Below are positions 6,041-64,000 of a stretch of 64,000 nt of DNA, piece by piece; the first letter of the stretch is position 1, and each line of letters begins with the position of its first letter. Origin of the DNA: Mytilus edulis (Eukaryota). A program made the position numbers and the translations under genes. A model generated the notes under the pieces. The model saw nothing but the letters and a program-made list of their open reading frames with translations, was not told the origin of the DNA and did no database searches. The stretch lies in assembly GCF_963676685.1 (NCBI RefSeq), contig NC_092353.1, positions 76,508,001 to 76,572,000 of the forward strand, in the 5' to 3' direction.

Positions 6041-7749
6041 TTATGTAATCTTGAACTGACGGATTTGTCCTGTGGAACTTACAACATTCAGTTTGTTAGT
6101 ATGCAAATAAACTCCAAATGATTCAGTTATTCCTCCATTTGCATTGAGTAATTTTCTGCTATTTTTACCATCTGCCGAGATCAACACAACACAAATGTTT
6201 CCATTCGAAATCACGTATATGATGCCGTGTTGATCAACAGCTATTCCAGAAGGACAACTCAGAATTGATTCGTCCTTGAATTCCCAACGTTTCTCTCCCC
6301 TTTTACTGTAGCATTTGAGTGTAGAACCATAATCAGTATAGTAAATGTTCTCTCCCGAGGTTGTAATATAACTCCAATCAGTCGCTATGGTGTTATCTTC
6401 TATCATAGTTCTTACTTTATTGTTTGATACGTTTATCGCTTGGATCCCTTTTCCTTTCTTACAGTAGAATAGCTGCCCATGTCTGTAAGTTAGACCTCGA
6501 CATATGCCTGTTTTAATTGTATTGGTTACTTGTTTGTTCTCCGTGTCTACAAGAACTAGTTTTTTGCTATATATCGTTGTAACAGTTACTGTTTTGTCAT
6601 CAATGCATGTCACATCAAATGGAAGTAGAGGCGAGAGAGGTATTTCACAGTCTAAAGTTCCATCGTTATGTACGATCACTAATCTATCATTATAACAGTC
6701 CGCAAGTATCATCCTTCCATCAGGAAAGACAGATAATCCTGTTATACATGTACTGTATTTTCCTGCTAGAACACTGAATTCTCCTATCAATGAAGCAGTA
6801 ATATCATCAATCGATTTACTACGGGGTGGAACAGCCGTAAACATTTGAGCCTGTTTCTCAGGACCGACGCCAATGACGATTGGTGATTTACTTTTTTCAA
6901 TTTTTATTGATCCAAAGCCAGTAATGTTTGATAGTATGTCTATAATCTTATCGTCTATCTGGCATTTCAAACCCAATTGGCTAAATCCGTCGTCTTTTGA
7001 TAGTTTTTTTACGTATTTTAACTCCTCAGCGACGTCCTTTTCTAACATTTTACTACCAATGAAAACCTGCAGGTCAGATCCGTGTTGTTTGACGGACATG
7101 AGATTTGTCTTCAAAATCTCAATCTCGTACTTTTTTTCGGAAGTGTAGCTTATTAAGAAGGGTTTCAATTTTGAGTTTGAGTTGTGTTTCAGTTGAATTC
7201 AAGTTGTCTATCATGTGTTTCTCTAATTCATCTAAGCGGGAGTTTAATTTTTCTTTTGTGTCTTTTATATTATTCATGCTTTTTAGATGCTGTTGCTTTA
7301 TTTCATGAAGATTGTCTTCTCGGTCCTTTACTACGCTTTCAATGTTTTCCTGAATGTTTTTCAGTGACTTCTCCAAACTGTCAAATAAAGTGCAAGTTCT
7401 AGAAGACTTGATGGCTTCGTCAATAGGGAACATTCCGTTGCATTCTTTGTGGTTTTCGGATATGCAAATTAGACAGCAAAGTTGATCATGACGTGGGCAA
7501 AACATCTGAAACGTCCTGTCATGCTCTGTACAATTCCGTTCAACTTTACAGATCTCGGCCGAAAGTTTCTTGTAGTTGTCCATAGAAAGGATCCCATGCT
7601 GTCTGGAAGCTTTTTACATGCTGTGGTAATTTATACATGTCGTGCAAAAACCTTCATCACATTCAGGACACCAGTAATCAGCAACGTGTGAAACATAGCT
7701 GAGCAACACAGATACCACACAGTATAACATCTACATCTGAGGCAGCCTT
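6041..7749 (-). pseudogene. TRIM-like B-box/coiled-coil/NHL pseudogene (G1, type A)
   Basis: ORFs 7119-7583 and 6041-7168 are collinear with the intact paralogs; start ATG mutated to AAG (7747-7749), +1 at ~7697, 4-nt insertion at ~7142-7145; no upstream promoter/mini-exon module found. Confidence 0.9.
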
Positions 7750-11007: not shown

Positions 11008-12708
11008 TTAGGCAATGTCAAATTTGAGAAGATGTCCGGAGTAAGATACAACACACAGTTTGTTAATATGAAAATACATTCCGTATGATTTCGTAATTCC
11101 ATCTTTTTCGGTAAGTAATGTTCTGCTATTTTTTCCATCTGACGATATCAACATGACTTTTTCGTTGCTTTTCGAAATCACGTAAACGATACCGTGTTGA
11201 TCAACAGCTATTCCACCTACACCATTCATAATTGATTCGTTCTTGTATACCCTTTTTTCTCCCTTTACACTGTAGCATTTGACTGTAGAACCATCAGTGT
11301 AGTAAAGGTTCTCGTCTGAGGTCGTTATGTAACAAAATTCTTCCTGTATGGTGCAATCCTCCACTAGTGTACATCCTTTATAGTTTGACAGTTGGATCCC
11401 TACGATACCTTTCCCCTTTTCACAGAATAAAATCTGTCCTTGTCTGTATGTAATACCTCGACTAGCGCCTGTGTTGATTGTTTTTGTAACTTGTTTGGTC
11501 TTTGTGTCTATAATTTGTATTTTTGTGCCGTTACAAATTGTAACAGCTACCGTTTTGTCATCAATACATGTAACATCAAATGGACAAAAAAGCAAGAGAG
11601 GTATTTCAGAATCTAAACTGCCATCACTTTGTACGATTATTAATCTCCTATTATAATAACAGTCCGCAAATATGATCCTTCCATCAGGAAAGACTGATGA
11701 CCCTGTTATACACATATTGGATTGTCCTGCTGGAACTTTGATATCTCCAATCAACGAAGCAGTTATACAATCAATCGATCTACTACGGGGTGGAACAGCC
11801 GTGAAAATCTGAGCTTGCATTTCATGACCGACACCAATGACGATTGGCGATTGACTTTTTTCAATTGTTATTGATCCGAATGCAGTGAATTTGGACAATA
11901 TGTCTGTAATCTTATCGTCTATATGACATTTCAAACCTAATTGGCTAAATCCATCATCTTCCGATAGGTTTTGTATGCATTTTAACTCATCGGTGACGTC
12001 CTTTTCTAACATTTTACTGCCAATGAAAGCTTGCAGATCGGATCCATGTTGTTTGACGGACATGAGATTTGTCTTCAAAAGCTCAATTGTTGTCAATTTT
12101 GTGGATAAATTATCAAGGAGGGTTTCAATTTTAAGTTTCAGTTGTGTTTCAGTTGAAATCAAATCGTCTATTATGTTTTTCTCTAATTCATCTAAGCGGG
12201 AATTTACCTTTCGTCTTGTGTCTTTTATATCATTTAAGCTTTTTAAATGATGTTGCTTTATTTCATCAAGATTGGCTTTCCGGTCCTTTACTACCATTTC
12301 AATATTTTCCTGAATATCTTTAAGAGACTTCTCCAAACTGTCGAACAAGGTGGAAGATCTTGATGACTTTATGACGTCGTCAATTAAGAACATTCCAGTG
12401 CATTCTTTGTGGTTTTCAGACACGCACATTATACAGCAAAGTTGGTCATGACGTGGACAAAACATTTGGAGTTTCTTGTTGTGTTCTGTACAATTCTGTT
12501 CAATTTTACAAATCTCAGCCGGAAGTTTCTTATAGTCGTCGATAGAAATTATCCCATGTTGTCTGGAAGCTTTTGACAAGCTGTGATAATTTTTGCAAGT
12601 CGTGCACAGTCCTTCTTCGCATTCAGGACACCAGTAATTGGCAACGTTTGAAACATGCTGACCATCACAGATTCCACACAGCATAACATCTACATTAGAG
12701 GCAGCCAT
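11008..12708 (-). CDS. RING-less TRIM-like protein, 2 B-boxes + coiled coil + NHL-type beta-propeller, 566 aa (G2, type B)
   Basis: Uninterrupted ORF; B-box1 CGIC..CPEC..CTTC..H..H, B-box2 CTEH..CPRH..CCIMC..H; heptad-rich middle; repeats such as PFDVT..D, GIAVDQHGIVYV; TAG acceptor directly before ATG. Confidence 0.92.
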   Translation of the reverse strand: MAASNVDVMLCGICDGQHVSNVANYWCPECEEGLCTTCKNYHSLSKASRQHGIISIDDYKKLPAEICKIEQNCTEHNKKLQMFCPRHDQLCCIMCVSENHKECTGMFLIDDVIKSSRSSTLFDSLEKSLKDIQENIEMVVKDRKANLDEIKQHHLKSLNDIKDTRRKVNSRLDELEKNIIDDLISTETQLKLKIETLLDNLSTKLTTIELLKTNLMSVKQHGSDLQAFIGSKMLEKDVTDELKCIQNLSEDDGFSQLGLKCHIDDKITDILSKFTAFGSITIEKSQSPIVIGVGHEMQAQIFTAVPPRSRSIDCITASLIGDIKVPAGQSNMCITGSSVFPDGRIIFADCYYNRRLIIVQSDGSLDSEIPLLLFCPFDVTCIDDKTVAVTICNGTKIQIIDTKTKQVTKTINTGASRGITYRQGQILFCEKGKGIVGIQLSNYKGCTLVEDCTIQEEFCYITTSDENLYYTDGSTVKCYSVKGEKRVYKNESIMNGVGGIAVDQHGIVYVISKSNEKVMLISSDGKNSRTLLTEKDGITKSYGMYFHINKLCVVSYSGHLLKFDIA

Positions 12709-15855: not shown

Positions 15856-17476
15856 TTAGGCAATGTCAAATTTTAGGAGGTGTCCGGAGTAAGATACAAC
15901 ATAAAGTTTGTTAATATGAAAATACATTCCGTATGATTTCGTAATTCCATCTATTTCGGTGAGTAATGTTCTGCTATTTTTACCATCTGACGTTATCAAC
16001 ATGACACTTATGTTTCTATTCGAAATCACGGAAACGATACCGTGTTGATCAACAGCTATTCCAGTTACACAATTCATAATTGATTCGTTCTTGTATACCC
16101 AAAGTTTGTCTCCCTTTACACTGTAGCATTTGGCTGTAGAACCATAATCAGTGAAGTAAAGGTTCTCATCTGAGGTCGTTATGTAACAAAAATCGTCCTG
16201 TATGGTGCAATCCTCCACTAGTGTACATACATTTAAGTTTGACAGTTGGATCCCTACGATACCTTTCCCTTTTTCACAGAATAAAATTTGTCCTTGTCTG
16301 TATGTAATACCTCGACTAGCGCCGGTGTTGATTGTTTTTGTAACTTGTTTGGTCTTTGTGTCTTTAATTTGTATTTTATTGTTGTTACGAATTGTAACAG
16401 CTACCGTTTTGTCATTAATACATGTAACATCAAATGGGTTAAGAAGTGAAAGAGGTACTTCACAGTCTAAAATTTCATCACTATGCACGATCACTAATAT
16501 TATCCTTCCATCGGGAAAGACTGATGATCTGAAGCAGTAGTATTATCAAGTAACCTAGGACGGGATGGCACTACCGTAAAAATCTGAGCCTGCTTTTCTT
16601 GATCTACGGTAAACAAAATTGACGACGGACTTTTTTTAATTGTTATTGACCCAAATGCTATAATTGTGGAGAACATTTTTGTGATCTTATCGTTTATCTG
16701 GCATTTCAAACCTAAATGGGTAAAATCCATCATCTTCCGAAATATTTTGTACGTATTTAAACTCCTTAGTGATGTCCTTTTCTAATATTTTACTACCAAT
16801 GAAAGCCTGCAGATGGGATCCGTGTTGTTTGACGGACATGAGATTTGTCTTCAAAATCTCAATCACGTTCTTTTTTTCGGAAAGTTTATTAACAAGAATT
16901 TCAATTTTGAGTTTAAGTTGTGTTTCAGTTGAATTTAAATTGTCTATCACTTCTTTCTCTAATTCATCAAAGCGGGAATTTAATTTTGTCTTGTGTGTTT
17001 TATATCATTTAATCCTTTAAGATGCTGTTCTTTTATGTTGACAATATTTTCTTCCCTGTCCTTTAATACTCTTTCAGTGTTGTCCTGAATGTCTTTCAGT
17101 GACTTCTCCAAACTGTCAAACAAAGTTGAAGATTTTGATAACTTGATAGCTTCGTCAATAGGGTACATTCCGGTGCATTCTTTACGGTTTTCAGATATGC
17201 AAACTAGACAACAAAGTTGGTATTGACGTAGGCAAAACATTTGAAATTTTCGATCATGCCCTCTACAATTTTGTTCTATTTTACAAATCTCAACTGGGAG
17301 GTTCTTATAGTTGTCCATGGATATTATCCCATGTTGTCTGAAAGCTTTTGATACGTTGTGGTAATTTTTGCAATTCGTGCATAGTCCTTCATCACATTCA
17401 GGACACCAGTTATTGAAACGTTCGAAACATGTTAAGCATCACATATTACACAAAGTATAACATCTGAGACAGCCAT
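15856..17476 (-). pseudogene. TRIM-like B-box/coiled-coil/NHL pseudogene (G3, type C)
   Basis: Four broken ORFs (16980-17318, 16687-16950, 16500-16733, 15856-16494) tile the family protein; early TAA near 17433, frameshifts near 16985 and 16725, deletions of ~52 and ~27 nt near 16529 and 16496; CAG|ATG at 17476. Confidence 0.9.
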
Positions 17477-26995: not shown

Positions 26996-27232
26996 TTATA
27001 TAATATTGAACTGATGGATGTGTCTATTGAAGCTTACAACATTCAGTGTATTAGTATGCAAATAAATTCCGTATGATTCAGAAATTCCATCTTTTACGGT
27101 TAGTAATGTTCTGCCATTTTTACCATCTGACGATATCAACCATGTCAACGCAACACATTTGTTTATATTTTCAATTACGTATACGATGCCGTGTTTATCA
27201 ACAGCTATTCCAGATACGTATACACCATTCAT
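26996..27232 (-). pseudogene. 3'-terminal remnant of a type-A TRIM-like gene (G4)
   Basis: GIAVDKHGIVYVI...SYGIYLHTNTLNVVSF..HQFNII*; downstream flank 26700-26995 resembles the G1 3' flank 5800-6040. Confidence 0.85.
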
Positions 27233-27384
27233 CAGTGATTCATCTAAATGGTGTCATCTTTCAATATATTAAATGATTTACATAGTGATTTATCATTAAT
27301 TTGTTCGTAAACCATATAAACAATTCTATCTTTTTTTGTTTCATAAAGACGACAATTTTTACTTTTTACGATGAACTTGGATAT

Positions 27385-29088
27385 TTATTGTGCCATGTCA
27401 AATATAAGGAGGACCCCAGTGTTGGACACAACATACAGTTTATTATTATGATAATTAATTCCGCCTGAATTTTGAATTCCATCTTTCGCAGTGAGTAATG
27501 TTCTGATATTTTTACCATCTGCCGATATTAACATGACACTTCTGTTTCTATTCGAAATCACGTAAACGATGCCGTCTTGGTCAACAGCTATTCCAGTAGT
27601 ACAACTCAGAATTGTTTCGTTCTTGTATTCCCAACGTTTCTCTCCCTTTACACTGTAGCATTGAACTGTAGAACCTTCACCTGTATAGTAAATGTTCTCT
27701 CCCGAGGTTGTTATATAACTTAAATTGTTATTTATGGTTTCATCTTTCACAATCGTTATTTCTTTATTGTTTGATACGTTAATCGCTTGGATCCCTTTTC
27801 CTATTTCACAGTATAATAGCTGTCCTTGTATGTATGTTATATTGCAACATTTACCTGGTTCGATTGTCTTTGTAACTTGTTTGCTCTTGGTATCTACAAT
27901 GACTATTTTATTGTCAGTGAACGTTGTAACAGCTACTGTTTTGTCATCAATACATGTCACATCAAACGGATGTAGAGGTGAGAGAGGTATTTTAGTGTCT
28001 AAAGTTCCTTCACTTTGTACGATCACTAATCTCTTATTATGATAACAGTCCGCAAATATTATTCTTCCATCAGGAAAGACTGATGATCCTTTTATATATG
28101 TATAAGAACGTCCGACTCGAACCTTGACATCTGTTATCAATAAAGCAGTAATATCATCAATCGATTTACTACGGGGTTGAACTGCCGTAAAAGATTGAGC
28201 CTGTTTCTCATGACCGACGCCAATGACGATTTGCGATTTACTTTTTTCAATTTTTATTGATCCAAAGACAGTTATGTTTGATAGTATGTCTATAATCCTA
28301 TCGTCTATCTGGCATTTCAAACCCAATTGGCTAAATCCATCGTCTTTTGATATGTTTTTCACGTATTTTAACTCCTCAGCGACGTCCTTTTCTAACATTT
28401 TACTACCAATGAAAGCCTGCAGATCGGATCCATGTTGTTTGACGGATATTAGATTTGTCTTCAAAATCTCAATCTCGTTCTTTTTTTCGGATAGGTTATC
28501 AAGAAGGGTTTCAATTTTGAGTTTTAGTTGTGTTTCAATTGAATTCAAGTTGTCTATCATGTGTTTCTCTAATTCATCTAAGCGGGAGTTTATTTTTTGT
28601 CTTGTGTCTTTTATATTATTCATGCTTTTTAGATGCTGTTGCTTTATTTCAACAAGATTGGCTTCTCGGTCCTTTACTACTCTTTCAATGTTTTCCTGAA
28701 TGTCTTTTAGAGACATCTCCAAGCTTTCAAACATGATGGATGATCTTGATGACTTTATGACGTCGTCAGTTAAAAACATTCCAGTGCATTCTTTGTGGTT
28801 TTCGGATATGCAAATTATACAACAAAGTTTGTCATGACCTGGACAAAACATTTGGAATTTTTTGTCGTGCTCTGTACAGTTCTGTTTAATTTTACAAATC
28901 TCAGCCGGAAGTTTTTTGTAGTCATCAATAGAAATAATTTCATGTTGTCTCGAGGCTTTTGACACGCCATGATGATTTTTACATGTTGAACACAGGCCTT
29001 CATCACATTCAGGACACCAGCAATCAGCTCCGTGTGAAGCATGCTGATCATCACAGATACCACACAATATAACATCTGAGGAAGCCAT
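27385..29088 (-). CDS. RING-less TRIM-like B-box/coiled-coil/NHL protein, 567 aa (G5, type D)
   Basis: Uninterrupted ORF with all B-box ligands; CAG acceptor directly before ATG. Confidence 0.92.
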   Translation of the reverse strand: MASSDVILCGICDDQHASHGADCWCPECDEGLCSTCKNHHGVSKASRQHEIISIDDYKKLPAEICKIKQNCTEHDKKFQMFCPGHDKLCCIICISENHKECTGMFLTDDVIKSSRSSIMFESLEMSLKDIQENIERVVKDREANLVEIKQQHLKSMNNIKDTRQKINSRLDELEKHMIDNLNSIETQLKLKIETLLDNLSEKKNEIEILKTNLISVKQHGSDLQAFIGSKMLEKDVAEELKYVKNISKDDGFSQLGLKCQIDDRIIDILSNITVFGSIKIEKSKSQIVIGVGHEKQAQSFTAVQPRSKSIDDITALLITDVKVRVGRSYTYIKGSSVFPDGRIIFADCYHNKRLVIVQSEGTLDTKIPLSPLHPFDVTCIDDKTVAVTTFTDNKIVIVDTKSKQVTKTIEPGKCCNITYIQGQLLYCEIGKGIQAINVSNNKEITIVKDETINNNLSYITTSGENIYYTGEGSTVQCYSVKGEKRWEYKNETILSCTTGIAVDQDGIVYVISNRNRSVMLISADGKNIRTLLTAKDGIQNSGGINYHNNKLYVVSNTGVLLIFDMAQ

Positions 29089-38120: not shown

Positions 38121-39812
38121 TTATGCAATATTGAATTGAAGGACTTGTCCAGTGAAACTAACAATATTCAGTTTGTTGGTATGCAAACGAATGCCAAGGG
38201 AAACCGGAATTCCATCTTTCGCAGTGAGTAATGTTCTGCTATTTTTACCATCTGCCGATATCAGCACTACACTTTTATTAGAAATCACGTATACGATGCC
38301 TTGTTGATCAACAGATATTCCAGTTGGATTACTCAGAATTGATTCGTCTTTGTATTCCCAACGTTTTTCTCCCCTTATACTGTAGCATTTTACAGTAGAA
38401 CCACTACCTGTATAGTAAATATTCTCTCCCGAGGTTGTTATATAACTCCAATCAGTCTTTATGGTGTCATCTTCTACTATAGTAATTACTTTATTGTTTG
38501 ATATGTTTATCGCTTGGATCCCTTTTCGTTTTTCACAGTAGAATAGCTGCCCATGTCTGTAAGTTAGACCGCGACATGTGCCTGTTTTAATTGTATTGGT
38601 TACTTGTTTGTTGTTCATGTCTACAATGACTAATTTATCAATTTGTAACGTTGTAACAGCTACTGTTTTGTCATCAATGCATGTCACATCAAACGGTTGT
38701 AGAGGTGAAAGAGGTATTTCACAGTCTAAAGTTCCATCACTATGTACGACCACTAATCTCTTTTTATTGTAGACCGCAATTATCATCCTTCCATCAGGAA
38801 AGACAGATAACCCTGCTATACATGAACTGTATTTTTTTCCTCGAACACTGAATTCTCCTATCAATGAAGCAGTGATATCATCAATCGATTTACTACGGGG
38901 TGGAACAGCCGTAAAAAATTGAGCCTGTTTCTCATGACCGACGCCAATGACGATTGACGATTTACTTTTTTCAATTTTTATTGATCCAAAGCCAGTTATG
39001 TTTGATAGAATGTCTATAATCTTATCGTCTATCTGGCATTTCAAACCCAATTGGCTAAATCCATCATCTTTTGATATGTTTTTTACGTATTTTAACTCCT
39101 CAGCGACGTCCTTTTCTAACATTTTACTACCAATAAAAGCCTGCAGATCGGATCCATGTTGTTTGACGGACACGAGATTTGTCTTCAAAATCTCAATCTC
39201 GTTCTTTTTTTCGGATAGCTTATTAAGAAGGGTGTCAATTTTGAGTTTAAGTTGTGTTTCAGTTGAATTCAAGTTGTCTATCATGTGTTTCTCTAATTCA
39301 TCTAAGCGGGAGTTTATTTTTTGTCTTGAGTCTTTTATATTATTCATGCTTTTTAGATGATGTTGCTTTATTTCAACAAGATTGGCTTCCCGGTCCTTTA
39401 CTACTCTTTCAATGTTTTCCTCAATGTCTTGTAGTGACTTCTCCAAACTGTCAAACAAAGTGGAAGTTCTCGAAGACTTGATGACTTCGTCAATAGGATA
39501 CATTCCGGTGCATTCTTTGTGGTTTTCTGATATGCAAATTAGACAACAAAGTTGATCATGACGTGGGCAAAACATTTGGAATTTCCGGTCATGTTCTCTA
39601 CAATTCTGTTCAACTTTACAAATCTCATCCGGAAGTTTCTTGTAATCGTCGATAGAAATGATCCCATGCTGTCTGGAAGCTTTTGACACGCCATGATGAT
39701 TTTTACACGTCGAGCACAGACCTTCATCACATTCAGGACACCAGTAATCAGCGACGTTTGAAGTATGCTGAGCATCACAGATACCACACAGTATAACATT
39801 CGAGGCAGCCAT
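38121..39812 (-). CDS. RING-less TRIM-like B-box/coiled-coil/NHL protein, 563 aa (G6, type A)
   Basis: True start is MAASNVILCGIC at 39812 after a TTACTTTTTCAG acceptor, as in all paralogs; the extra 71 codons in the ORF track are intron. Confidence 0.92.
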   Translation of the reverse strand: MAASNVILCGICDAQHTSNVADYWCPECDEGLCSTCKNHHGVSKASRQHGIISIDDYKKLPDEICKVEQNCREHDRKFQMFCPRHDQLCCLICISENHKECTGMYPIDEVIKSSRTSTLFDSLEKSLQDIEENIERVVKDREANLVEIKQHHLKSMNNIKDSRQKINSRLDELEKHMIDNLNSTETQLKLKIDTLLNKLSEKKNEIEILKTNLVSVKQHGSDLQAFIGSKMLEKDVAEELKYVKNISKDDGFSQLGLKCQIDDKIIDILSNITGFGSIKIEKSKSSIVIGVGHEKQAQFFTAVPPRSKSIDDITASLIGEFSVRGKKYSSCIAGLSVFPDGRMIIAVYNKKRLVVVHSDGTLDCEIPLSPLQPFDVTCIDDKTVAVTTLQIDKLVIVDMNNKQVTNTIKTGTCRGLTYRHGQLFYCEKRKGIQAINISNNKVITIVEDDTIKTDWSYITTSGENIYYTGSGSTVKCYSIRGEKRWEYKDESILSNPTGISVDQQGIVYVISNKSVVLISADGKNSRTLLTAKDGIPVSLGIRLHTNKLNIVSFTGQVLQFNIA

Positions 39813-47340: not shown

Positions 47341-47405
47341 TCAGCAACGTGTGAAGCATGCTGAGCATCACATATACCACACAGTATAACATCTGAGGCA
47401 GCCAT
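47341..47405 (-). pseudogene. 5'-terminal remnant of a type-D TRIM-like gene
   Basis: TAG|ATG then MAASDVILCGICDAQHASHVA; upstream 47406-51060 is homologous to the G5 upstream region 29089-31930. Confidence 0.85.
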
Positions 47406-50445: not shown

Positions 50446-51264
50446 TAAAGTAGATTGTTTTATTGCTTCACTAATGTTTTAATTGGTCTTAATGCGTAAA
50501 ATAAGTCGGAAATAAGACTTAGTAAATTCGTTGTAGTAACTAGCAAAATACCAAATCAATTTGCCTCTTAAGACATCTGGATTTCGATTCTAAGTTTGAA
50601 GCTTTGTAACGGTGAAATATACCTGATTTTATCCGCGTAACATTTTTTGGCGCCATACTAAATCTTTCACTTATTTTCGAATTTACTGAAACAAAGACAT
50701 GCAAAAAGGGGAACAACTTGAAAGTGTTCGTGAAGACATACTTCAATTAAATGATGACGTCTTGTCCACTTGAAATAATATGTAAAGATAGGAAAGACAG
50801 CATTAAAACCGTCACGTTCGTGTTGACAATGTTTGTGGAGCAGGCTCTGCTTACCCTTCCGGAGCACATGAGATCGTCACCAGGTTTTGATAGGTTCGCG
50901 TTGCTAAGTCTTTAGTTTTTTGTATGTTTTGTTTTGTTAAAAGTTGTTTGCCTTATGGTTCTTTAACTTTCATTTACTTCTAGAACATGATTTACATTGC
51001 TAATCTCCATTCCTCCAGAAACAATTAATTTATTTACAGGAAATACAAAAGACTGAAAACAGCATAAGACCATCTTTGAATTTTTAACTTAGCATAATAA
51101 AATCCTGCACACGGAGGCCGAGTAAATCTTGCCCCTTTAAAAAAACGGTGTACTAGTTCAGTGATAATGAATGTCACACTAAACTCCAAAAAATATGGAG
51201 GCTGGCTCTCTTACTGAAAATATGTTTTCTATAACATTTTAACAGGTAACCTAATAGTCAAGAA

Positions 51265-52971
51265 TTAAGCAATGTCAAACTTGAGGAGCTTTCCGGAGTA
51301 AGATACAACACGCAAATTATTAATATGAAAATACATTCCGTATGAATTCGTAATTCCATCTTTTGCGGTGAGTAATGTTCTGCTATTTTTTCCATCTGAC
51401 GATATCAACACGACTCTTTCGTTGGTATTCGAAATCACGGAAACGATACCGTGTTGATTAACAGATATTCCAGTTACACCATTTATAATTGATTTGTTAT
51501 TGTATTCCCAATGTTTGTCTCCCTTTAAACTGTAGCATTTGACTGTAGAACGATTATCAGTATAGTAAAGGTTCTCACCTGAGGTTGCTATGTAACTATA
51601 ATCGTATTTTATGGTGCAATCCTCCACAAGTGTATATATTTTAAAGTTTGACAGTTGTATCCCTACGATCCCTTTCCCTTTTTCACAGTAAATAATGTGT
51701 CCTTGTCTGTATGTAATACCTCCACCAGCGCCTGTGTTGATTGTTTTGGTAACTTGTTTGTTCTTTGTGTCTATAATTTGTATTTTATTGTTGTTAAAAG
51801 TTGTAACAGCTACCGTTTTGTCATCAATACATGTAACATCAAATGGATGTAGGGACGAGAGACGTATTTCAGTAGATAAACTGCCATCACTTTGTACGAT
51901 TATTAATCTGTTATTTAAATGACAGTCCGCTAATATTATCCTTCCATCAGGAAAGACTGATGATCCTGTTATACACGAACTGTATTGTCCTTCTGGAACC
52001 TTGACATCTCCAATCAATGAAGCAGTAATATCACCAAACGATCTACTACAGGATGGTACAGCCGTGAAAGTCTGAGCTTGCATCTGATGACCGACACCAA
52101 TGACGATTGGCGATTGACTTTTTTCAATTGTTATTGATCCGAATGCAGGGATTTTGGATAATATGACTGTAATCTTATCGTCTATCTGGCATTTCAAACC
52201 TAATTGGCTAAATCCATCATCTTCTGATAGGTTTTGTATGCATTTTAACTCATCACTGACGTCCTTTTCTAACATTTTACTACCAATGAAAGCCTGCAGA
52301 TCGGAGCCATGTTGTTTGACGGACATGATATTTGTCTTCAAAAGCTCAATTGTTGTCATTTTTGTGGATAACTTATCAAGGAGTGCTTCAATTTTAAGTT
52401 TCAGTTGTGTTTCAGTTGAATTCAAATCGTCAATTATGGTTTTCTCTAATTCATCTAAGCGGGAATTTACGTTTCGTCTTTTGTCTTTTATATCATTTAA
52501 GATTTTTAAATGATGTTGCTTTATTTTATCAAGATTGGCTTCCCGATCCTTTACTACCTTCTCAATGTTATCCTGAATATCTTTTAGAGTCTTTTCCAAA
52601 CTGTCAAACAAGGTGGAGGATCTTGATGACTTAATGGCGTCGTCAATTAAGAACATTCCAGTGCATTCTTTGTGGTTTTCAGACACGTACATTATACAGC
52701 AAAGTTGGTCATGACGTGGACAAAACATTTGGAATTTCTTGTCGTGTTCTGTACAATTTTGTTCAATTTTACAAATTTCAACCGGAAGTTTCTTGTAGTC
52801 GTCAATAGAAATTATCCCATGTTGTCTGGAAGCTTTTGATATGCTGTGGTAATTTTTACATGTCGAACACAGGCCTTCGTCGCATTCAGGACACCAGTAA
52901 TCAGCAACGTGTGATGTATGCTGAACATCACAGATTCCACACAGTATAACATCTACATTTGAGGCAGCCAT
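51265..52971 (-). CDS. RING-less TRIM-like B-box/coiled-coil/NHL protein, 568 aa (G8, type B)
   Basis: Uninterrupted ORF; TAG acceptor directly before ATG; one B-box2 Cys replaced by Tyr. Confidence 0.9.
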   Translation of the reverse strand: MAASNVDVILCGICDVQHTSHVADYWCPECDEGLCSTCKNYHSISKASRQHGIISIDDYKKLPVEICKIEQNCTEHDKKFQMFCPRHDQLCCIMYVSENHKECTGMFLIDDAIKSSRSSTLFDSLEKTLKDIQDNIEKVVKDREANLDKIKQHHLKILNDIKDKRRNVNSRLDELEKTIIDDLNSTETQLKLKIEALLDKLSTKMTTIELLKTNIMSVKQHGSDLQAFIGSKMLEKDVSDELKCIQNLSEDDGFSQLGLKCQIDDKITVILSKIPAFGSITIEKSQSPIVIGVGHQMQAQTFTAVPSCSRSFGDITASLIGDVKVPEGQYSSCITGSSVFPDGRIILADCHLNNRLIIVQSDGSLSTEIRLSSLHPFDVTCIDDKTVAVTTFNNNKIQIIDTKNKQVTKTINTGAGGGITYRQGHIIYCEKGKGIVGIQLSNFKIYTLVEDCTIKYDYSYIATSGENLYYTDNRSTVKCYSLKGDKHWEYNNKSIINGVTGISVNQHGIVSVISNTNERVVLISSDGKNSRTLLTAKDGITNSYGMYFHINNLRVVSYSGKLLKFDIA

Positions 52972-53106
52972 CTAAAATACAGACGATAAATTCTTAAAAT
53001 GAATATATCTGAAAGAATAATGTGTATGTTTATAAACAGATATTGAAACCTGTACCCAGCGTCATATATTTTTGAAATGTTTGTAATGTTTAAATTATTA
53101 TATTAA

Positions 53107-53675
53107 AGTCATAAGAAACGAGTATCCGGTAAAAAATATTGTTCTTCCAATTAAACCAATGCATACAAACATCATAAACTTAGTCTTCTGTGCTCGAATT
53201 TATCATTTTTTTCGTGTAAATATCGTATAATCGTCAATTTTTTTTTCAATCGGTCAGTGTTGTTGTGAAAATATGGCAGGTAATTAAAGTTCGTATTTTA
53301 AAGCCGAAGTTTAACGATTGTCACCTGTTTGTCAACAATTGACGAAAAATAAACAAAAAAGCATGGAAATTGAGCACGTGTTTAACATGTAAATTCAGAT
53401 AATAGTTTATTTTAAGGACATCCATGCGTATTGTGGTCACCGGATTTTTACGAGATGGGTCACACTGAGGTCATCTTGCATACGGAAAATATATCGGGGG
53501 AATAGCTTGCTGGAAGGAAGCAATTCAAATAAAGTAAACTTCTTCTAAATATGAATAAATTAAAGAATTTTCTTCAGAAAAAAGTATATGTACATAAGTT
53601 TTACAATGAAAACTATCCATTGAGTTATAAAAAACATATGCAATATTTTTTTTGGATTTGAGGTTTCTTATGACT
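53107..53675 (-). mobile_element. Kolobok-like non-autonomous element, second copy
   Basis: TTAA flanks and the same 13-bp TIR as 43482-44033, opposite orientation; absent from the paralogous G2 intron near 12835. Confidence 0.8.
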
Positions 53676-56325
53676 TTAAACATAAGTGAAAGATTCAAAA
53701 CGGTGCAAATAAAAGTAGTTCAGAAGGTAATCTCGAAAATTCATCAACTCACAAAAACAAGTAGTTATCCAAATTAAATGCAGATAGTGTTAAAAGTGAT
53801 ATAAGATTACAACTTCTAAAACAATAACGGTCAAATTTAACAAAATATCAATCGCTTATCGCTTTTATTTGGCTTACGATATTTAATATTTATACTTAAC
53901 ACTATTACGCGTCTGAAAATGTCACATTGCGTCGTGAATAATAAAGGCAACAGTAGACATTAATCGATTAAGAAAAAAACCAAATCCGGGTTACAAACTA
54001 ACACTGAGGAAAACGCATCAAAAGTGTTAACTAAACAAAAATAAACAATTGTTTGAATCTTCAATATCAATTCAAACACAAAATACACAAAATAAAAATA
54101 GATGATCTTAATGAACATACTAGACAAAACACTTCTGATACTTATTTAAAAACTACCATTGATTTTGTTGATGTTTCAAGTTAGGGGTAGGAAGTTACAA
54201 TAGCTGTCATGTGTATGCAGATCAAACATAAGAAGAAAGTATTCAAAACTTGGAAAAAGTGAGAGAAGCTGATTACAGGAACGAGCTCTTTTTTTATATA
54301 ACTACAATCTAATATATATCATAGCTGCTAGGGTATATAAGACAGATATTTTTTAATATTTTTTTTTAGTTGATTTGAAATATTACGAACAATACCAATA
54401 TGATAAATATAAACGATGTCTGCGATCTGACGGCAAGGAACGCACGCTTTCAAGAGAAATCGTTGGGGACTTTTATTTATTTATATAGCAGAAAAATGGA
54501 GTAGATTTAGTTGCCCTTTTGTTTCTTAGTATGGATAGTCAAATTGGTTTTTTTCTCTGAGTCGTTTAAATCACTCGAAACTAGGTGAGACGTGCACAGA
54601 AGTGATAGATATGTACATATGTTTTATTAATATAGAAAAATGAATATTTTAATCAACATAAAACAAAAAAAATATATCTGTATCATATACACAAGTCCAG
54701 TGATACATAGGACTGCACTTTATTATTGAAACGGGTTTTTGCTTTTATGCTTTAAATTGTCCACGGGTGAACATTTTTGATTATTTATTGATATGATAAA
54801 TAAAGAAAGGCTGACACAAGATAGATCACTGTCAGGCCAAAATAAAAATACAGTTTGTTTTCCCTCGCCCGACCGACTAAGAGAAAGTCCTACCGACCCA
54901 AAAGTTTTTATTCCGATTTTTATATTCGCTTTTTCCCGGAGTTTTTCAGGATTGTTTCCGGTACGGACTGTCATTTGTCAGTCACCGGAAGTTTCCTATT
55001 TTTCATCGGATAATATCAAACGTTAAGAAAGGATACGATTAGAGGTGGTCTGCAATAAAGAAAATCGTCTACACGAGGAGAAAAGATACTATGAGCGACG
55101 GAATATTTACGCTGTGTTTATCAGTGGTTGCAAAATGTTACAGTATCAGTGACATTTAACAACCACCTGTACGAGTATGACAATCATGAGACGTGGAACG
55201 ACCATCTTCGCAAGCCAAGGATAACGATCCACCTACCTCCTCTCTATCTCTGGCGGACTGAGATAGAATTTCGGAGACACAAGGTAATGATTTTGATTAT
55301 TTGCAGTGGAAACTCGCTGCATCCAATCAAAAAGCGCCTATAACATGATCACGTGCAAATGTAGAAAGTGTGTGTATATAATTACCACGTTCTTATTATG
55401 CAACAAGTCTTTACATTTCTAAACATACGACTATATTGAGTGACAAATTGAATGTTTTTAATCATCTAATAGAAGTTCCTGTGTATTTTTCTGTATTGCT
55501 TTAATAAGTGTGTAGAATCTAGACGCTACCGTGTTTTTACTTCCAAATTTAAGAGTTCCAGTGCTACCATTGGTCACGAACAATGTACTGAGAATGGGCG
55601 TGACTTTCATCTACCGATAGATGGCGCAACATTGTTATCACAAAGGTTGGCTTAATCTGCCAAGAGTGGAGAGGAGGGAAGTGAATCGTAACCCTTGGTT
55701 TGCGAAGATGTGGAACGACGTGCATAGACACCAAGTTCATGACGTTTTGCCTTTAGACAAAGATAACTTTAACTTTCCACAAAAATACATGTGTGTCTAA
55801 CAAAATAATAGGGACAGCAACATGTAAGCCTAATATGAACGAACACATCAGAATCGTTAGGGTATTTGACAGAATCCTTTACAATAAACAGAGACAAATA
55901 TGTTGGTTTGACCAACACAGAGTAGTCTGATATTAACCCTGACGTCCGACAGCTGTTCGCCAGACAAAGCTTGTCTGGCAAAACAGCTGTCGGATGTCAG
56001 AGAAATGTCATTTAAAAAAATGCCAAATTCAAGGATAAAACAGCAGCAAATTTGAAGTACTAGGTTAATAGAAACAAAATCATTTTTTAAAGAGAGGATT
56101 GGTTCTTTTAGGATAAGGGGAACCTTCTCCCATCTTTTCATTGCTTTTTTTTGTTGTTGCATCCGACAGTCCGCGGTTAAGAAGTTGGTGGGAAAAAGCT
56201 TAAAAATGGGGGGAACCCCTGCTCAATTGTTTTGAGATACAACAAAAAAAATTTGCAAACCCTTTTAATGACTTAGTGCCATCAAGATAAAACCATATAT
56301 CATATTTTTATTTCGAAACTTTGAC

Positions 56326-56530: not shown

Positions 56531-57550
56531 AAACAAGAAATACATGTTCACCCTACAATCATTCAATACACTAAATATAGTTGACCAATTGCTTATAGTT
56601 TTTAAGAAACAGACTTAACCAAGAAAACTATAAATTGACCAATGAACCATGAAAATGAGGTCGAGGTCAGATGAACCATGTCCGGCAGACATGTGCAGTA
56701 CACAATCCTTCCATACAACACATATAGTTTAAGAAAAACAGACCAAATCAGAAAACATAACACTGAGCAATGAACCGTGAAAATGAGGTCAAGATCGTAT
56801 AAAACCTGCGAGACTGAAATGGACAATGTAAAATATTTGCATACACCAAATATAGTTATTACATATAGTATAAGAAAAAAAAGACTTAAACTAAAAAAAT
56901 TAACTTTGACAACTGAACCATGAAAATGAGGTCAAGGTCCGATGACACATGCCAGTTGGACATTTACACCTTACAATTATTCCCTACATCAAATGAAGTA
57001 AACCTATTGCATAGAGTAAAAGTAAAACAGACCAAAACACAAAAACTTAATTATAACCACTGAACCATGAAAATGAGGCCAAGGTTAGATGACACCTGCT
57101 AGTTGGACATGCACACCTTACACTCCTTCCATACACCAAATATACTAGATCTATTGCTTATAGTATCTGAGAAATGGACTTGACCACCAAAACTTAACCT
57201 TGTTCACTGATCCATGAAATAAGATCGAGGTAAAGTGAAGACTATCTGACGGGCATGAGGACCTGACGCACATACCAAATATAGTTATTCTGTTACTCAT
57301 ACTATTAAAGAGAGAAATTAACATTACAAAAAATCCTAACTTTTTTTCAAGTAGTCACTGAAACATGAAGTCAAGGACAATGAACATGTGACAGACAGAA
57401 ACTTCGTAACATAAGGCATCTATCATGTGTCTATATACAGAGTATGAAGCATCCAGGTCTTCTACCTTCTAAAATATATAGCTTTTTTAAGTAAGTTAAC
57501 GCCGCCCCGCCGCCGCCGGATCACTATCCATTTGTCCAGTTTTCTGCAGC
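56531..57550 (+). repeat. Pearl/HINE-like element with internal subrepeats
   Basis: Starts AAACAAGAA; repeated AACCATGAAAATGAGGTCAAGG units; (GCC)n near the end; paralogous to 13310-14120. Confidence 0.65.
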
Positions 57551-57932
57551 TGGAGAAAAAAAACTTTTGACCTACACATCTGTGAAATCCAGGGTCGAGA
57601 GAGGGAAAACAAACATATTTTAAATTTGGCCTCAGTTGCAAACTGATTGACGTCTTACGAAAATTTCGACGTGATTTTAAAGTTTGAATTAAAATTGGTC
57701 TAATTGTTTGAAACGGTAAAGTTCAACAAGATAACTGGGTTTTACGCCATATTATTATGATAATGTTGTCAATGTATATATACAGTCGAATTACAGTGTA
57801 GTATAAACGTGAAAAATAGCAAACAAATTTACGTGTCTATATTGGATGAATCAACGCAAAACTACAAATATACATACAATTTCAGAATATAAGTGCTCGA
57901 AAAGGTTCATAACGTACATAAATATATAAATT

Positions 57933-58140
57933 ACCTTTACAATTTGATACACATACAGGAAGTAAAAAGTCCAAAGTCCACTTTTTGAACTATATAAATA
58001 GAAATTGTTTATTGTCGAAACAATCTCATGTCACGTGTGATCTTAATTCGTCTGCAATATTCTTATAATTTCTCTCTTTGATAATGAAGAAAAGGGAGGG
58101 AACGAGTGATTAAGTGTTCCTTGTAGTTCCCAAAATCATT
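57933..58140 (-). promoter_or_regulatory. Putative promoter/first exon/donor of G8
   Basis: Near-identical to the 14508 module: donor AAG|GTAATT, CAGGAAGT, CTATATAAATAG, TCACGTG. Confidence 0.6.
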
Positions 58141-59680
58141 ACAACAATTAAAAAACAGCTATAAATAAAACCGTTTTTTTTTATATATATTATAAAAGTA
58201 CAACCCTTATCCATGTTATATGTATTCCCATTTAAAGTCATACGATGCTTTACAAATTAACAAAAAAGTTTAACTGTAAAAAAATGTACGTGTACGTTAA
58301 CCTTTTTTTTTTTTAACGAAAATGAATTGTTGAAAATCGAAATCTTCAGAAAAGCAATGCTACTGACCATACCTAATCGCTTTTTAGTCCAGCCACAATG
58401 ACAACTTACTGTGTGGGTTGAGTCTCGCAAAACAAAGATCATCAGTACCGAGCATCAGTACCTAGCGTGAACGTGTGGAAGAAAAATTTAGAAAGCAAAC
58501 ATTTTTAAACTTTGAATAATTATGGTCCAGTGTATCAAAACACGAATAAAAGTCACAAAAATGTTTAGCTTAAAGTGTTGACACTGAATATGTAAAAGTT
58601 TCTTTTTGAAACATTCTATTCATGACACATTTTTAAAATATTGCACCGCAACCCCCCAACCCCAGCCGCCCAAATAGCTTCAACTAGATGAACAAGTTTT
58701 GAAATTACAAAACTTATATGGATTTGACTGAATAGCGATGGGTGTGTTGTCTTACAGTACTTTAAATCGCCGTCATAGGACTTAAAGAATAAAATGAGAC
58801 CGTATCAGAGATGTATTTTCTCGTTTTAAACGCTTTAAAAAGGTTTATCAGTCCAAATTTTTCTATTTGGATGCAAACTTCTTGACCGTTATTTTTCCCC
58901 AGTAGTGAAATTATTTTCTAATGAGTAATGCATTTTTTTTCGAGTGGGATGGCAATTAGAATACAATTATGATTTTTTAATTTGTAAGTGTTATAATTAC
59001 ATGTAGCAAAAAAGAGAACATTATATTGTTATTCAAAAGGACAAAAAGGGGAACCTAAAATGAAATATGTTGTGTTTCTATTGGCCCACAGTATCTAAAT
59101 AAAAACGACTTTGCTGCTTACTATAAATTAAAGTTTTTCAATCTTATATAATTGAGACGTATTTTTTTTCAGGAAAAGTGTGTATTTCAGAAATATTGTT
59201 CTTATCAATACTTCTCTGCGCCTCTTTAACCTAATACATTTAATGACAAAATGAACTTCATCTTAACCCTCTGATTTATATGGAACACAAACTATCAACT
59301 CTACCGACCTCTTTTGATGTTACTTTCACGTTTTTTTTTATATAAAAATGTATATGGTGCCGTTTGTGAATCATAACCTGTGAACGAATATTTTTTTCTT
59401 ATAAAAATTGTTTAAATTTGCGATGGTCGGAAGATGGCCTGTCAATGGATTCACGAAAAATGAAAACGTTCTAAATAGTGTATGTACAAAATACGTTTTG
59501 AAAAATCTCATTTTGAACTTTTATGAATACATGAAATTATTATTTTTAATCTTACCTTTGAATTATATCATTTTGAGTGTATCATATTATATCTGGCCTG
59601 GCGTAGAATTCGTGATTATGGATCTAACAATTGAACATTACAAAAACAGTAATGAAGGGTTATTATTATGCAAAGTATCA

Positions 59681-60687: not shown

Positions 60688-61864
60688 CATCAATATTTTA
60701 ACATTATTTAAAAAAAATATCTGCATAGTAAAAGCCTTCTGTAATTCATAAGCCTTGTCAGTAGTTTTTCTATGTTCTCTCACGTAATATTTATAGTTAT
60801 GTGGAGAATTCTATAATGACAAGAACCCGGTTTACAATTACTCTAACCAGCTTTGAACATATATGTAGTTTAAACACACGAGAACTTCTTTAATCCCAAC
60901 AAATAGAAAAGTATTGAATATTCCCTCTATTTACTGTTCACAACCTTAAACATTTCAAACGACCAGTAATGACCGCTTTGACGAATTGTCCGGGGTAATA
61001 TTTCGAGTAAAGCCGTATACTATCAACAAACATTTTTGACTGACATAAAAGAAAAATACCGTGAAAGGCGAGACATAAATATTTGAATCGGTGTTTTTGG
61101 ATTTTGGATATTCCAAAGTTAACTGATATTAATTAATATAAGTACTTACAAGATATGTCAACTCGGTGAAGATTTACTTATCGAGTACTCGTTGGATTTA
61201 CTGAGTGATACTCGAATACTCGCTCGAAAAAAGCAACCTACAAATTGATACACTAACTACATGAACTATACCTATTTAATGTATTGTGGGTTGTTGTATT
61301 ATAGACGTTTAAAAGTCTTCAACAATAGATCATAGTCCCAGGAATTATATACCATGATTTCATAGTTCATTTACTGCATGTACTAATAACGTCATCATAT
61401 TAACTGACAATTATGTAATTAATTAATTAATAACCACCTATAGAAAAATAATTACTCAAACAACAGTATTTGGGAATCATAAAAAAAATTAATGACCAAC
61501 AAAGGGGTGCTGATTAAAACTTACACATGCCTTTAATCAATTCTCCTGGGATATTTAGAAACATTCGATCTCCAAACTTTGATACGTAATCATCCGTCTT
61601 TCTGATGAAAATATAAGATCTGATGCTACCGGAGTGGCGGAATGACTAAGATACGACGATAAGGTAAAAGTCTAAGCATCGGACAGGTACTCTTGTTCAT
61701 AGTGTACTTCTGGTCAAAGGAAATTTTAAAAGGCAAACTTTTGAATTTTTAATTATTTTTTTTATTTTTGATTAATGTTCAATTTCCTTAGAGGCGCTCT
61801 TAATGCAAATATGTTTTCTTTAAGGAAGTAACAGCACCAGGACAGGAAACCGAATAGTTGAGGA

Positions 61865-63565
61865 TTAGGCAATGTCAAATTTGAGGAGGTTTCCAGAGTA
61901 AGATACAACACACAGTTTGTTAATAAGAAAACAAATTCCGTATGATTCACCAATTTTATCCTTTGCAGTGAGTAAAGTTTTGCAACTTTTACCATCTGCT
62001 GATATCAACACAACACATTTGTTTTTATTTGAAATAACGTATACGATGCCGTGCTGATCAACAGCTATTCCAGTAGGACAACTCAGAATTGATTCATCCT
62101 TGTATTCCCAAAGTTTGTCTCCCTTTACACTGTAGCATTTGACTGTAGAACCATTATCAGTATAGTAAAGGTACTCATATGAGGTCGCAATGTAACTAAA
62201 ATCGTTTTTTATGATGCAATCCTCCACTAGTGTACATAATTTATAGTTTGACAGTTGGATCCCTACGATTCCTTTCCCTTTTTCACAGTATAAAATCTGT
62301 CCTTGTCTGTATGTAATACCTCGACTAGCGCCTGTGTTGATTGTTTTGGTAATTTGTTTGGTTTTTGTGTCTATAATTTGTATTTGATAGTCGTTAAAAA
62401 TTGTAACAGCTACCGTTTTGTCATCAATACATGTAACATCAAATGGACAAAAAGGTAAGAGAGGTATTTCAGAATCTAAACTGCCATCACTATGTACGAT
62501 TATTAATCTCTTATTAAAATAAAAGTCCACAAGTATCATCCTTCCATCAGGAAAGACAGATAATCCTGTTATACACATATTGGATTGTCCTGCTGGAACT
62601 TTGATATCTCCAATCAATGAAGCAGTTATATCATCAATCGATTTACTACGGGGTGGAACAGCCGTAAAAATCTGAGCCTGTTTCTCATGACCGACACCAA
62701 TGACGATTGGCGATTTACTTTTTTCAATTTTTATTGATCCAAAAGCAGTAATTTTGGATAATACGTCTGTAATTTTATCGTCTATCTGGCTTTTCAAACC
62801 CAATTGGCTAAATCCATCGTCTTTCGATATGTTTTGTACGTATTTTAACTCCTCAGTAACGTCCTTTTCTAACATTTTACTACCAATAAAAGCCTGCAAA
62901 TCGGATCCATGTTGTTTGACGGACATTAGATTTGTCTTCAAAATCTCAATCTCGTTCTTTTTTTCGGATAGCTTATTACGAAGGGTGTCAATTTTGAGTT
63001 TAAGTTGTGTTTCAGTTGAATTCAAGTTGTCTATCATGTGTTTCTCTAATTCATCTAAGCGGGAGTTTATTCTTTGTCTTGTGTCCTTTATATCATTTAA
63101 GCTTTTTAGATGCTGTTGCTTTATTTCAATAAGATTAGCTTCCCGATCTTTTACTACTCTTTCAATGTTTTCCTTAATGTATTTTAGTGACTTTTCCAAA
63201 CTGTCAAACAAAGTGGAAGTTCTCGAAGACTTAATGACTTCGTCGATAGGGTACATTCCGGTGCATTCTTTGTGGTTTTCAGACACGCAAATTAGACAGC
63301 AAAGTTGATCATGACGTGGGCAAAACATTTGAAACTTTCTATCATGCTCTCTACAATTCTGTTCTATTTTACAAATCTCAGCCGGAAGTTTCTTGTAGTC
63401 GTCCATAGAAATGATCCCATGTTGTCTGGAAGCTTTTGACAAGCTGTGATAGTTTTTGCAAGTCGTGCACAGTCCTTCCTCACATTCAGGACACCAGTAA
63501 TTGGCAACTTTCGATACATGTTGAGCATCACAAATTCCACAAAGTATCACATTTGAGACAGCCAT
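61865..63565 (-). CDS. RING-less TRIM-like B-box/coiled-coil/NHL protein, 566 aa (G9, type C flank, mosaic body)
   Basis: Uninterrupted ORF; TAG acceptor directly before ATG; 5' flank 63566-64000 homologous to the G3 flank 17477-17920. Confidence 0.92.
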   Translation of the reverse strand: MAVSNVILCGICDAQHVSKVANYWCPECEEGLCTTCKNYHSLSKASRQHGIISMDDYKKLPAEICKIEQNCREHDRKFQMFCPRHDQLCCLICVSENHKECTGMYPIDEVIKSSRTSTLFDSLEKSLKYIKENIERVVKDREANLIEIKQQHLKSLNDIKDTRQRINSRLDELEKHMIDNLNSTETQLKLKIDTLRNKLSEKKNEIEILKTNLMSVKQHGSDLQAFIGSKMLEKDVTEELKYVQNISKDDGFSQLGLKSQIDDKITDVLSKITAFGSIKIEKSKSPIVIGVGHEKQAQIFTAVPPRSKSIDDITASLIGDIKVPAGQSNMCITGLSVFPDGRMILVDFYFNKRLIIVHSDGSLDSEIPLLPFCPFDVTCIDDKTVAVTIFNDYQIQIIDTKTKQITKTINTGASRGITYRQGQILYCEKGKGIVGIQLSNYKLCTLVEDCIIKNDFSYIATSYEYLYYTDNGSTVKCYSVKGDKLWEYKDESILSCPTGIAVDQHGIVYVISNKNKCVVLISADGKSCKTLLTAKDKIGESYGICFLINKLCVVSYSGNLLKFDIA

Positions 63566-64000
63566 CTAAAACAGAGGTGAATATTGAATACAGTTTCTGA
63601 AACATGTACTCTGCCGACTGGTGGTAAAATGTAAAATAACAAAAATTCCGAACTCCGATAAAAAATTTGAACAGAAAGTCCGTAAGCAAATGGCAAAATC
63701 AAAAGCTCAAACGAATGGATGACAACTGTCTTATTCCTGATCGCTAGGTACAGGCACTTTCTAATGTAGAAAATGGTGGATTAAACCTGGTTTTATAATT
63801 AGCTAAACCTCTCACTTGAATGTGTATGTTTAAATCATTTCATTTAACATTAGTGAAAGTTTGAAAACTGCTCCCATTAATTTTTTTTTTCTTTTCGATA
63901 CATTCCCGCTACCACTACGGTTCTTGCATCTATATGTGTAAAGTAAATATGTATTCGCATAGCCACATATCTTGGTAAATTAGCTGATATAAGATAAAGT

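Follow-up and report, generated by a model that had tools for sequence, protein, structure and literature searches.

Mosaic paralogs in a tandem array of B-box, coiled-coil and propeller genes of Mytilus edulis

The gene array and its proteins

We analysed a window of 64,000 nt from the 1.37-Gb genome of Mytilus edulis (G000:C10:76508001-76572000), which contains eight full-length copies of one gene, all on the minus strand, together with remnants. Five copies are intact (G2, G5, G6, G8 and G9) and three are broken (G1, G3 and G7). We call type A the state at sites where G1 and G6 agree and type B the state where G2 and G8 agree; 150 sites separate the two. Paired positions are those of the window, and nt numbers are those of the coding sequence (CDS).

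6041..7749, minus strand: G1, full-length, type A, broken (no ATG, split frame)
11008..12708, minus strand: G2, type B, intact, 566 aa; the nearest copy of its 3' part is G3
15856..17476, minus strand: G3, full-length, broken; type A at nt 222-727, type B from nt 1131
27035..27253, minus strand: G4, remnant of blades 5-6, adjoining G5 from behind
27385..29088, minus strand: G5, intact, 567 aa; type B at nt 144-378 (in common with G7), type A at nt 387-1599
38121..39812, minus strand: G6, type A, intact, 563 aa
45473..47178, minus strand: G7, frameshifted; G5-like at nt 120-285 (16 of 19 sites), type B elsewhere
47344..47405, minus strand: truncated second gene start, an ATG and about 60 nt, upstream of G7, then G5-type 5' flank
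51265..52971, minus strand: G8, type B, intact, 568 aa
61865..63565, minus strand: G9, intact, 566 aa; one coding exon directly behind an AG

In pairwise comparisons the eight copies are 78-90% identical at the DNA level. No additional copy was found within 60 kb on either side of the window, and the remaining scored matches in the genome are at most 45% identical to the window gene. The propeller family as a whole has at least 77 scored matches in the M. edulis genome, in several clusters. The named close relatives (66-83%) are Mytilus proteins only, from trossulus, edulis, galloprovincialis, coruscus and californianus. G9 itself falls into a protein-database cluster whose representative is an unrelated 40-aa peptide, a clustering artefact that may conceal the nearest G9 relatives in the homolog search.

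The G9 protein consists of B-box1, B-box2, a coiled coil (aa 118-271), a linker and a six-bladed NHL-like propeller (aa 315-566). These parts appear in the predicted structure (mean pLDDT 84) as a pair of B-boxes, one long helix and a propeller of six blades, with predicted coiled-coil helices at 118-219 and 222-248 and 24 modelled propeller strands in aa 315-565, mostly at pLDDT above 85. The Pfam zf-B_box model scored 24.0 bits in G9, against a cut-off of 24.1, and 24.4 bits in G2, and Pfam NHL scored 20.2 bits in the propeller (cut-off 20); across 52 proteins, 16 of the 19 invariant columns are Cys or His in aa 9-101. The CDS opens with B-box1, and Pfam gave no RING hit in any of the three proteins scanned, nor any hit to NB-ARC or LRR domains. 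An AG directly precedes each start codon, so the CDS is likely a single exon behind a 5' intron.

The best Foldseek matches of the propeller were the NHL domains of Thin, Brat and TRIM2 (16-18% identity; E ~1e-14 to 1e-12). The mussel proteins share the B-boxes, long coiled coil and six-bladed propeller of TRIM-NHL proteins (Thin, Brat, TRIM2, TRIM3, Mei-P26 and NHL-2); however, their propeller is just 15-18% identical, RING and filamin domains were not found, and there is one coding exon. TRIM-NHL genes are also conserved single genes, whereas the mussel family is large and variable. We found no study of this propeller family in Mytilus; "B-box", "NHL" and "gene conversion" are absent from the main texts of PMC7653742 and PMC10514466, whose supplements may list it.

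We also observed several features around the copies. Going upstream from G7, one meets the second gene start after 165 nt and then about 3.7 kb of G5-type 5' flank in pieces (47411-51150), which are 80-90% identical to 29094-32014. The M. californianus isoforms P0007 and P0100 differ only within their first ~20 residues, which hints at duplicated starts in other places too. Gene remnants on the minus strand lie right behind G5 (27035-27253, blades 5-6) and G6 (37884-38001, blade 1) and are likely footprints of deletions in the array. A repeat with an internal tandem part occurs three times between genes at ~72-82% identity (13306-15195, 40895-42663 and 56542-59529), and a 580-nt inverted pair lies at 43478-44037 and 53103-53679. 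An open frame of 183 aa at 22790-23341 (plus strand) resembles a fragment of a piggyBac-type transposase. Just outside the window, L031 506-6040 (plus strand) holds two long open frames of 721 and 1000 aa, which we take to resemble a retroelement. About 15 kb past the window end, the minus strand of L032 (G000:C10:76582001-76592000) carries a 321-aa open frame with what look to us like canonical NHL repeats; tblastn gave no match between this frame and G9.

Tracts of different ancestry within single copies

An earlier note on this DNA had described the paralogs, and G9 above all, as patchworks of one another. We ran 15 patterns derived from its motifs against the window copies. CPECEEGLCTTCKNYHSLSK, GDIKVPAGQSNMCITG and DGSLDSEIPLL.FCPFD were restricted to G2 and G9, and CREHDRKFQ, GMYPIDEVIKSSRTST (the original motif minus its last letter) and KIDTL..KLSEKKNEIEIL to G6 and G9. 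TGASRGITY occurred in G2, G3 and G9. The exact form of WEYKDESILSCPTG was found in G9 only, and its relaxed form was common to G1, G6 and G9.

We then painted G9 at the 150 A/B sites. It is type A over nt 222-923 (with short B patches), type B over 954-1442, type A over 1468-1618 and type B over 1625-1690, giving 29 runs where 74.7 were expected (P 1e-5). The tracts and flanks, in the direction of transcription, are as follows.

63566..63986, minus strand: 5' flank; G3 is the sole match (81% over 435 nt); high-copy repeat from ~63600
63367..63511, minus strand: B-box1 tract, nt 55-199, closest to G2 (94-95%)
62643..63344, minus strand: type-A tract of B-box2, coiled coil and linker, nt 222-923; 93% to G6, 85% to G2
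62924..63071, minus strand: youngest tract, nt 495-642, 98% to G6
62124..62612, minus strand: type-B tract of the closing strand and blades 1-4, nt 954-1442; 92% to G2, 75% to G6
61948..62098, minus strand: type-A blade-5 tract, nt 1468-1618; 12 of 12 diagnostic sites A
61876..61941, minus strand: type-B end of blade 6, nt 1625-1690; 12 of 13 diagnostic sites B
61339..61823, minus strand: 3' flank, common to G3 and G7 (70-72%)

The order proposed earlier for G9 (G3's 5' flank, a G2-like B-box1, G6-like B-box2 and coiled coil, G2-like first blades and a last blade again like G2) is thus borne out. The proposed G1/G6 origin of blade 5 holds for its class only: because the tract is just 83% identical to G1 or G6, it is an old A-class sequence and a copy of neither.

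Synonymous sites switch together with the protein. Over nt 222-923, 23 synonymous sites of G9 are G6-like and 6 are G2-like, and over nt 954-1442, 21 are G2-like and 4 are G6-like (P 6e-6 for the switch, with bounds set post hoc), which is evidence against convergent protein change. The longest identical run between any two window copies is 92 nt, inside the G6/G9 tract at 62924..63071. Since the G9 tracts are 83-98% like their donors, most of them are old.

The direction of transfer is ambiguous: either the A-type blade 5 or the adjoining B tract may be the incoming piece. Blade 5 of G9 resembles californianus and trossulus (outgroup) proteins, and it may be ancestral sequence that was retained, with the B tract as the incoming piece. 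Both flanks of G9 are G3-type and surround internal A tracts, and the layout of an A half followed by a B propeller may partly reflect ancestry in common with G3. Donors since lost from the sequenced haplotype are a possible source of some tracts.

G7 is also composite. KIKQNCTEHDK and KLCCIICISE are exclusive to G5 and G7, confirming the G5-type B-box2 that had been proposed for this copy, and TGAGGG and SLSTEI occur in G7 and G8 only. The proposed G1/G6-type 5' flank was found for the proximal ~165 nt; beyond the truncated start, the flank is G5-type (84-90%). A G2-type coiled coil passing into G8-type blades was recovered (37 of 52 sites, then 61 of 85), but this switch is between two type-B copies and is less well supported, and at synonymous sites only the G7/G8/G2 triplet gave P 0.63.

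One part of the earlier proposal did not hold, namely that the exchanged tracts are about one blade long. A propeller blade spans ~126 nt, and blades start near nt 976, 1111, 1237, 1357, 1477 and 1609. The robust G9 tracts measure ~145, 700, 490, 150 and at least 66 nt, and only the blade-5 tract is about the length of a blade. We considered whether shuffling might nonetheless be phased to blades, through break sites at blade borders or selection for whole-blade swaps. The G9 tract at nt 1468-1618 nearly coincides with blade 5 (1477-1608), and at the looser setting of a copying model 5 of 11 merged breakpoints fall within 8 nt of a blade start, with a median internal tract of 130 nt. However, the 10-11 merged propeller breakpoints lie on average 28-29 nt from blade starts against 32.6 nt at random (P 0.28 and 0.22, at low power), the 130-nt median comes from a setting in which a tree without recombination would already yield 42 of 56 switches, and two robust tracts are several blades in length. 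The B-boxes and coiled coil show exchanges no less clearly than the propeller does, and a tract in P0090, a protein from another M. edulis assembly, crosses a blade border. We therefore consider blade-phased shuffling improbable.

The copying model gave 38 or 56 switches, depending on the setting, against 19.6 (maximum 31) or 41.6 (maximum 53) in single-tree data (20-42 overall). Equating nearest-copy switches with conversion events was rejected on this ground, as at least half of the apparent switches are noise. The painting penalised gaps; an unpenalised version let gaps in G3 attract matches, and from it we took only the list of identical runs and the G6/G9 tract.

Tests against a single tree and against misassembly

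To judge the mosaic pattern as a whole, we compared it with one duplication tree in which rates are uneven along the gene and amino-acid changes converge. The plain PHI test gave P 0.0005 at all sites and P 0.023 at 58 synonymous sites, and stayed at the permutation floor whichever one copy was omitted; 67 of 169 triplets reached P ≤ 0.001. Uneven branch lengths inflate such values, and we therefore replaced the plain PHI P values by null distributions from single-tree simulations with branch lengths fitted per window. Against these, the observed PHI z of -22.9 lay well beyond the null minimum of -12.9 (60 simulations; null mean -7.3). The largest quartet conflict was 18, a value that never exceeded 10 in 200 simulations, and conflict affected 44 of 70 quartets, compared with at most 13 in simulated data. 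Of 8 segments, hand-picked after looking, 5 were flagged as rejecting the whole-gene tree.

Single-tree simulations do yield part of the signal, and the whole-gene tree places G9 as the sister of group B, such that its A/B painting alone could arise from shifts in branch length. Two results tell against this account. Opposite splits are each strongly backed in different parts of the gene (G2G9|G5G7 by 18:0 sites in test window 1, G2G7|G5G9 by 23:1 in test window 3), a combination reached in no simulation, and synonymous sites switch as well, with P 0.0013 for the G9/G2/G6 walk at synonymous sites only. The synonymous-only tests of two other triplets were not significant (G9/G2/G1, P 0.62; G5/G6/G2, P 0.68). 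The quartet and PHI tests with simulated nulls largely refute descent without recombination, which we regard as very unlikely. One tree for the eight copies is rejected, and the mosaicism is real. GC bias as a cause of the mosaic was set aside, with GC3 at 0.33-0.36 in all eight copies.

Chimeric assembly is a known hazard for tandem copies in heterozygous genomes, and the mosaic copies might have been stitched from reads of different paralogs. We followed the G9 junctions in contigs assembled from public runs. The junction at nt 199-222 lies inside one run-X8 contig with 0 differences (63322-63472), the A-to-B junction at nt 923-954 in a run-X4 contig with 1 difference (62420-62687), and the junction at nt 1618-1625 in X1 and X3 contigs with 0 differences; both of these runs may come from the source study. 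The last junction also occurs in allele contigs of X5 (24 differences in 706 nt) and X4 (11 in 363 nt). The junction at nt 1442-1468 is bridged by one X4 contig only, with 11 differences. No contig among the runs examined spans full-length G9, and at 62899, 62979, 62987 and 63181 no X1 contig has G9's own letter; both points would favour a chimera. Against it stand the junctions within single contigs from runs of several studies, the short longest identical run between copies (92 nt), tracts that are 83-98% like their donors, and P0090, in which the blade 5/6 joint and the residues private to G9 are preserved in another assembly. Stretches that no contig covers carry no weight. Misassembly of G9 is unlikely, and we put the chance that stitched reads account for the mosaics as a whole at very low indeed. 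The description of the paralogs as patchworks produced by gene conversion or unequal crossover is thus supported.

The same contigs bear on alleles and transcripts. X5 equals G9 exactly over nt 678-1145 (62421-62888, three contigs) and is ~3-5% off in the 3' part and flank (61500-62300), which indicates that G9 alleles are themselves recombinant. The differences listed for X5 match P0090, and we counted the two once. Run X4, which may be RNA, contains a G9-like allele; the RNA run X19 yielded short or divergent pieces only.

Variation between assemblies and in a second cluster

We next compared the window copies with proteins of other assemblies, which are gene models and may be erroneous or chimeric themselves. 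P0090 differs from the G9 propeller at 22 of 236 aa, keeps the blade 5/6 joint and is likely an allele of it. It is identical to G9 over 59 residues, then G7-like over aa 389-416, then G9-like again.

62318..62401, minus strand: G7-like stretch of P0090, aa 389-416; 9 of 28 residues differ from G9 and 3 from G7

Outside this stretch, which was picked after looking, P0090 and G9 differ at 13 of 208 residues (Fisher P 2e-4). The stretch is likely a polymorphic short conversion over two variable loops. Two further models from the M. edulis assembly that yields P0090 change abruptly along their length: compared with G8, P0002 has 7 differences in 292 residues and then 66 in 274 (P 2e-4), and compared with G6, P0013 has 5 in 270 and then 52 in 185 (P 2e-4). 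P0018 has a G5-like start followed by the G6 propeller. Other individuals thus appear, from these protein models, to carry other joints.

Some units have nevertheless persisted. The G6 propeller is nearly unchanged in P0018 (15 of 303 differences) and in galloprovincialis P0098 (9 of 220), and clear alleles of parts of G9, G6 and G7 are seen between assemblies, as judged from protein models. Across species, all four pairings of coiled-coil type and propeller type were found. Concerted evolution by species was rejected as an explanation, since none of three finished protein trees brought the window copies together (of 32 rows, 6-9 short ones were omitted per finished tree, and 5 from the quick tree of blades 1-3). 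The A and B lineages appear from these comparisons to be old, and to have been recombined, not homogenised.

The same tests were applied to a second cluster of the family.

G000:C4, ~68.2-68.8 Mb: second family cluster, L011, L013-L017, L019 and L021

With seven copies (L011, L013, L015-L017, L019 and L021; the identical L014 was omitted), PHI z was -17.2 against a null minimum of -8.9, and 20 of 35 quartets were in conflict against at most 4. The mosaic pattern is therefore not special to the window array.

Probable germ-line exchange and its meaning

The copies have mosaic ancestry, with old to moderately recent tracts and joints that differ between assemblies. We infer that the eight copies became mosaics of one another by repeated ectopic recombination in the germ line between misaligned tandem copies, through gene conversion and unequal crossover (probability roughly 0.85). 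Tandem single-exon copies would misalign in meiosis or in the germ line, where homology for exchange would come from the coding exon, which runs for 1.7 kb without interruption and is 78-90% identical between copies. Gene conversion would then leave internal tracts, and unequal crossover would produce hybrids of N-terminal half and propeller joined near the linker; in one haplotype, conversion and double crossover give the same picture. Exchange could strike at any point of the gene, in tracts some tens to hundreds of bases long, and its products would accumulate over times similar to or longer than allele divergence. As a by-product, new combinations of variable loops would arise on the presumed binding face of the propeller.

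Tracts identical to germ-line donors and units phased to structural modules are the marks of cassette-type or somatic systems of the VLR or FREP kind. The mussel array differs from them on both counts, with a longest identical run of 92 nt, tracts at 83-98%, and units that are not module-phased (P 0.28 and 0.22 on 10-11 breakpoints, at low power). Nothing points to somatic shuffling, in which every animal would make its mosaics anew in body cells, an idea put forward for the FREPs of snails and for myticin-C of mussels, and we give it next to no weight as the source of these mosaics: in PMC3164099, recombinants among myticin-C cDNAs, of which none were seen in genomic DNA, are read as somatic recombination or conversion, but here the tracts are 2-17% off their donors and the same junctions recur in different samples, suggesting that they are inherited and old.

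The loops that join strands D to A and B to C hold 22 of the 30 most variable columns within 67 of 566 residues; from general propeller topology, we take these DA and BC loops to be the binding face. In TRIM-NHL proteins, RNA or protein is bound at the top face of the propeller, the face that is variable in the mussel family. Among the five intact copies, dN/dS is 0.93 in the loops (CI 0.66-1.39), 0.15 in the B-boxes, 0.30 in the coiled coil and 0.47 in the strands, values that together with the variability would fit either binding proteins with differing targets or relaxed constraint. The earlier suggestion that exchange re-assorts the variable loops follows from the positions of the tracts; selection for such re-assortment is unsupported at a loop dN/dS of 0.93. 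The proteins would act in the cytoplasm as dimerising binding proteins whose targets differ, and an immune role would be plausible. A broader and more doubtful idea, which we hold only tentatively, is that RING-less B-box, coiled-coil and propeller genes form a large repertoire of cytoplasmic receptors in which ongoing germ-line exchange is kept by selection. If so, the set of binding-loop combinations would differ from mussel to mussel, and the family would be to animals, on an NHL-like propeller scaffold, what Type I R-gene clusters are to plants.

In PMC4161772, the tomato I2 homologues, which are Type I R genes, are described as tandem paralogs 85.6-99.8% identical with frequent exchange. 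Type I plant clusters share with the mussel array tandem paralogs in a similar identity range, sequence exchange and chimeric genes. Allelic relations between genotypes are eroded in the plants and may be partly so in the mussel, where some alleles survive (G9/P0090, and the G6 propeller in P0098). The mussel proteins are not NBS-LRR. The zebrafish NLR-B30.2 and finTRIM families are likewise expanded, clustered and intracellular with a variable C-terminal domain, and bioRxiv 10.1101/027151 and PMC2657112 report recombination breakpoints or gene conversion in them and propose that short conversions recombine substitutions in the recognition domain. Those families carry B30.2 and significant positive selection, whereas the mussel genes have a six-bladed propeller, a CDS without RING or NACHT, and a loop dN/dS of ~0.9. 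In the N-domain of primate CEACAMs, conversion between paralogs alters a binding surface and is polymorphic within species, according to PMC8860441; unlike the mussel proteins, however, CEACAMs are surface receptors with tested bacterial ligands. Other marine invertebrate expansions, outside this mussel family, include variable propellers diversified by recombination (PMC8195603).

The array thus exemplifies, with good support, a process that is already known, in a family that has been little described. Such exchange is ordinary for tandem arrays, and the locus by itself is not surprising; its value lies in the evidence it gives on a very large mussel family for which we found no description. 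The pattern recurs in a second cluster, varies between assemblies and, as is seen in recognition families, reaches the propeller face that is variable. For these genes, one-to-one orthology and short-read mapping are unreliable, and selection tests need non-recombinant segments. Exchange in the C4 cluster is younger, making it the better site for studying ongoing conversion. L011 and L015 share an identical run of 487 nt there, and L013 and L014, 8.6 kb apart, are 100% identical, which may reflect a recent duplication or an assembly duplicate.
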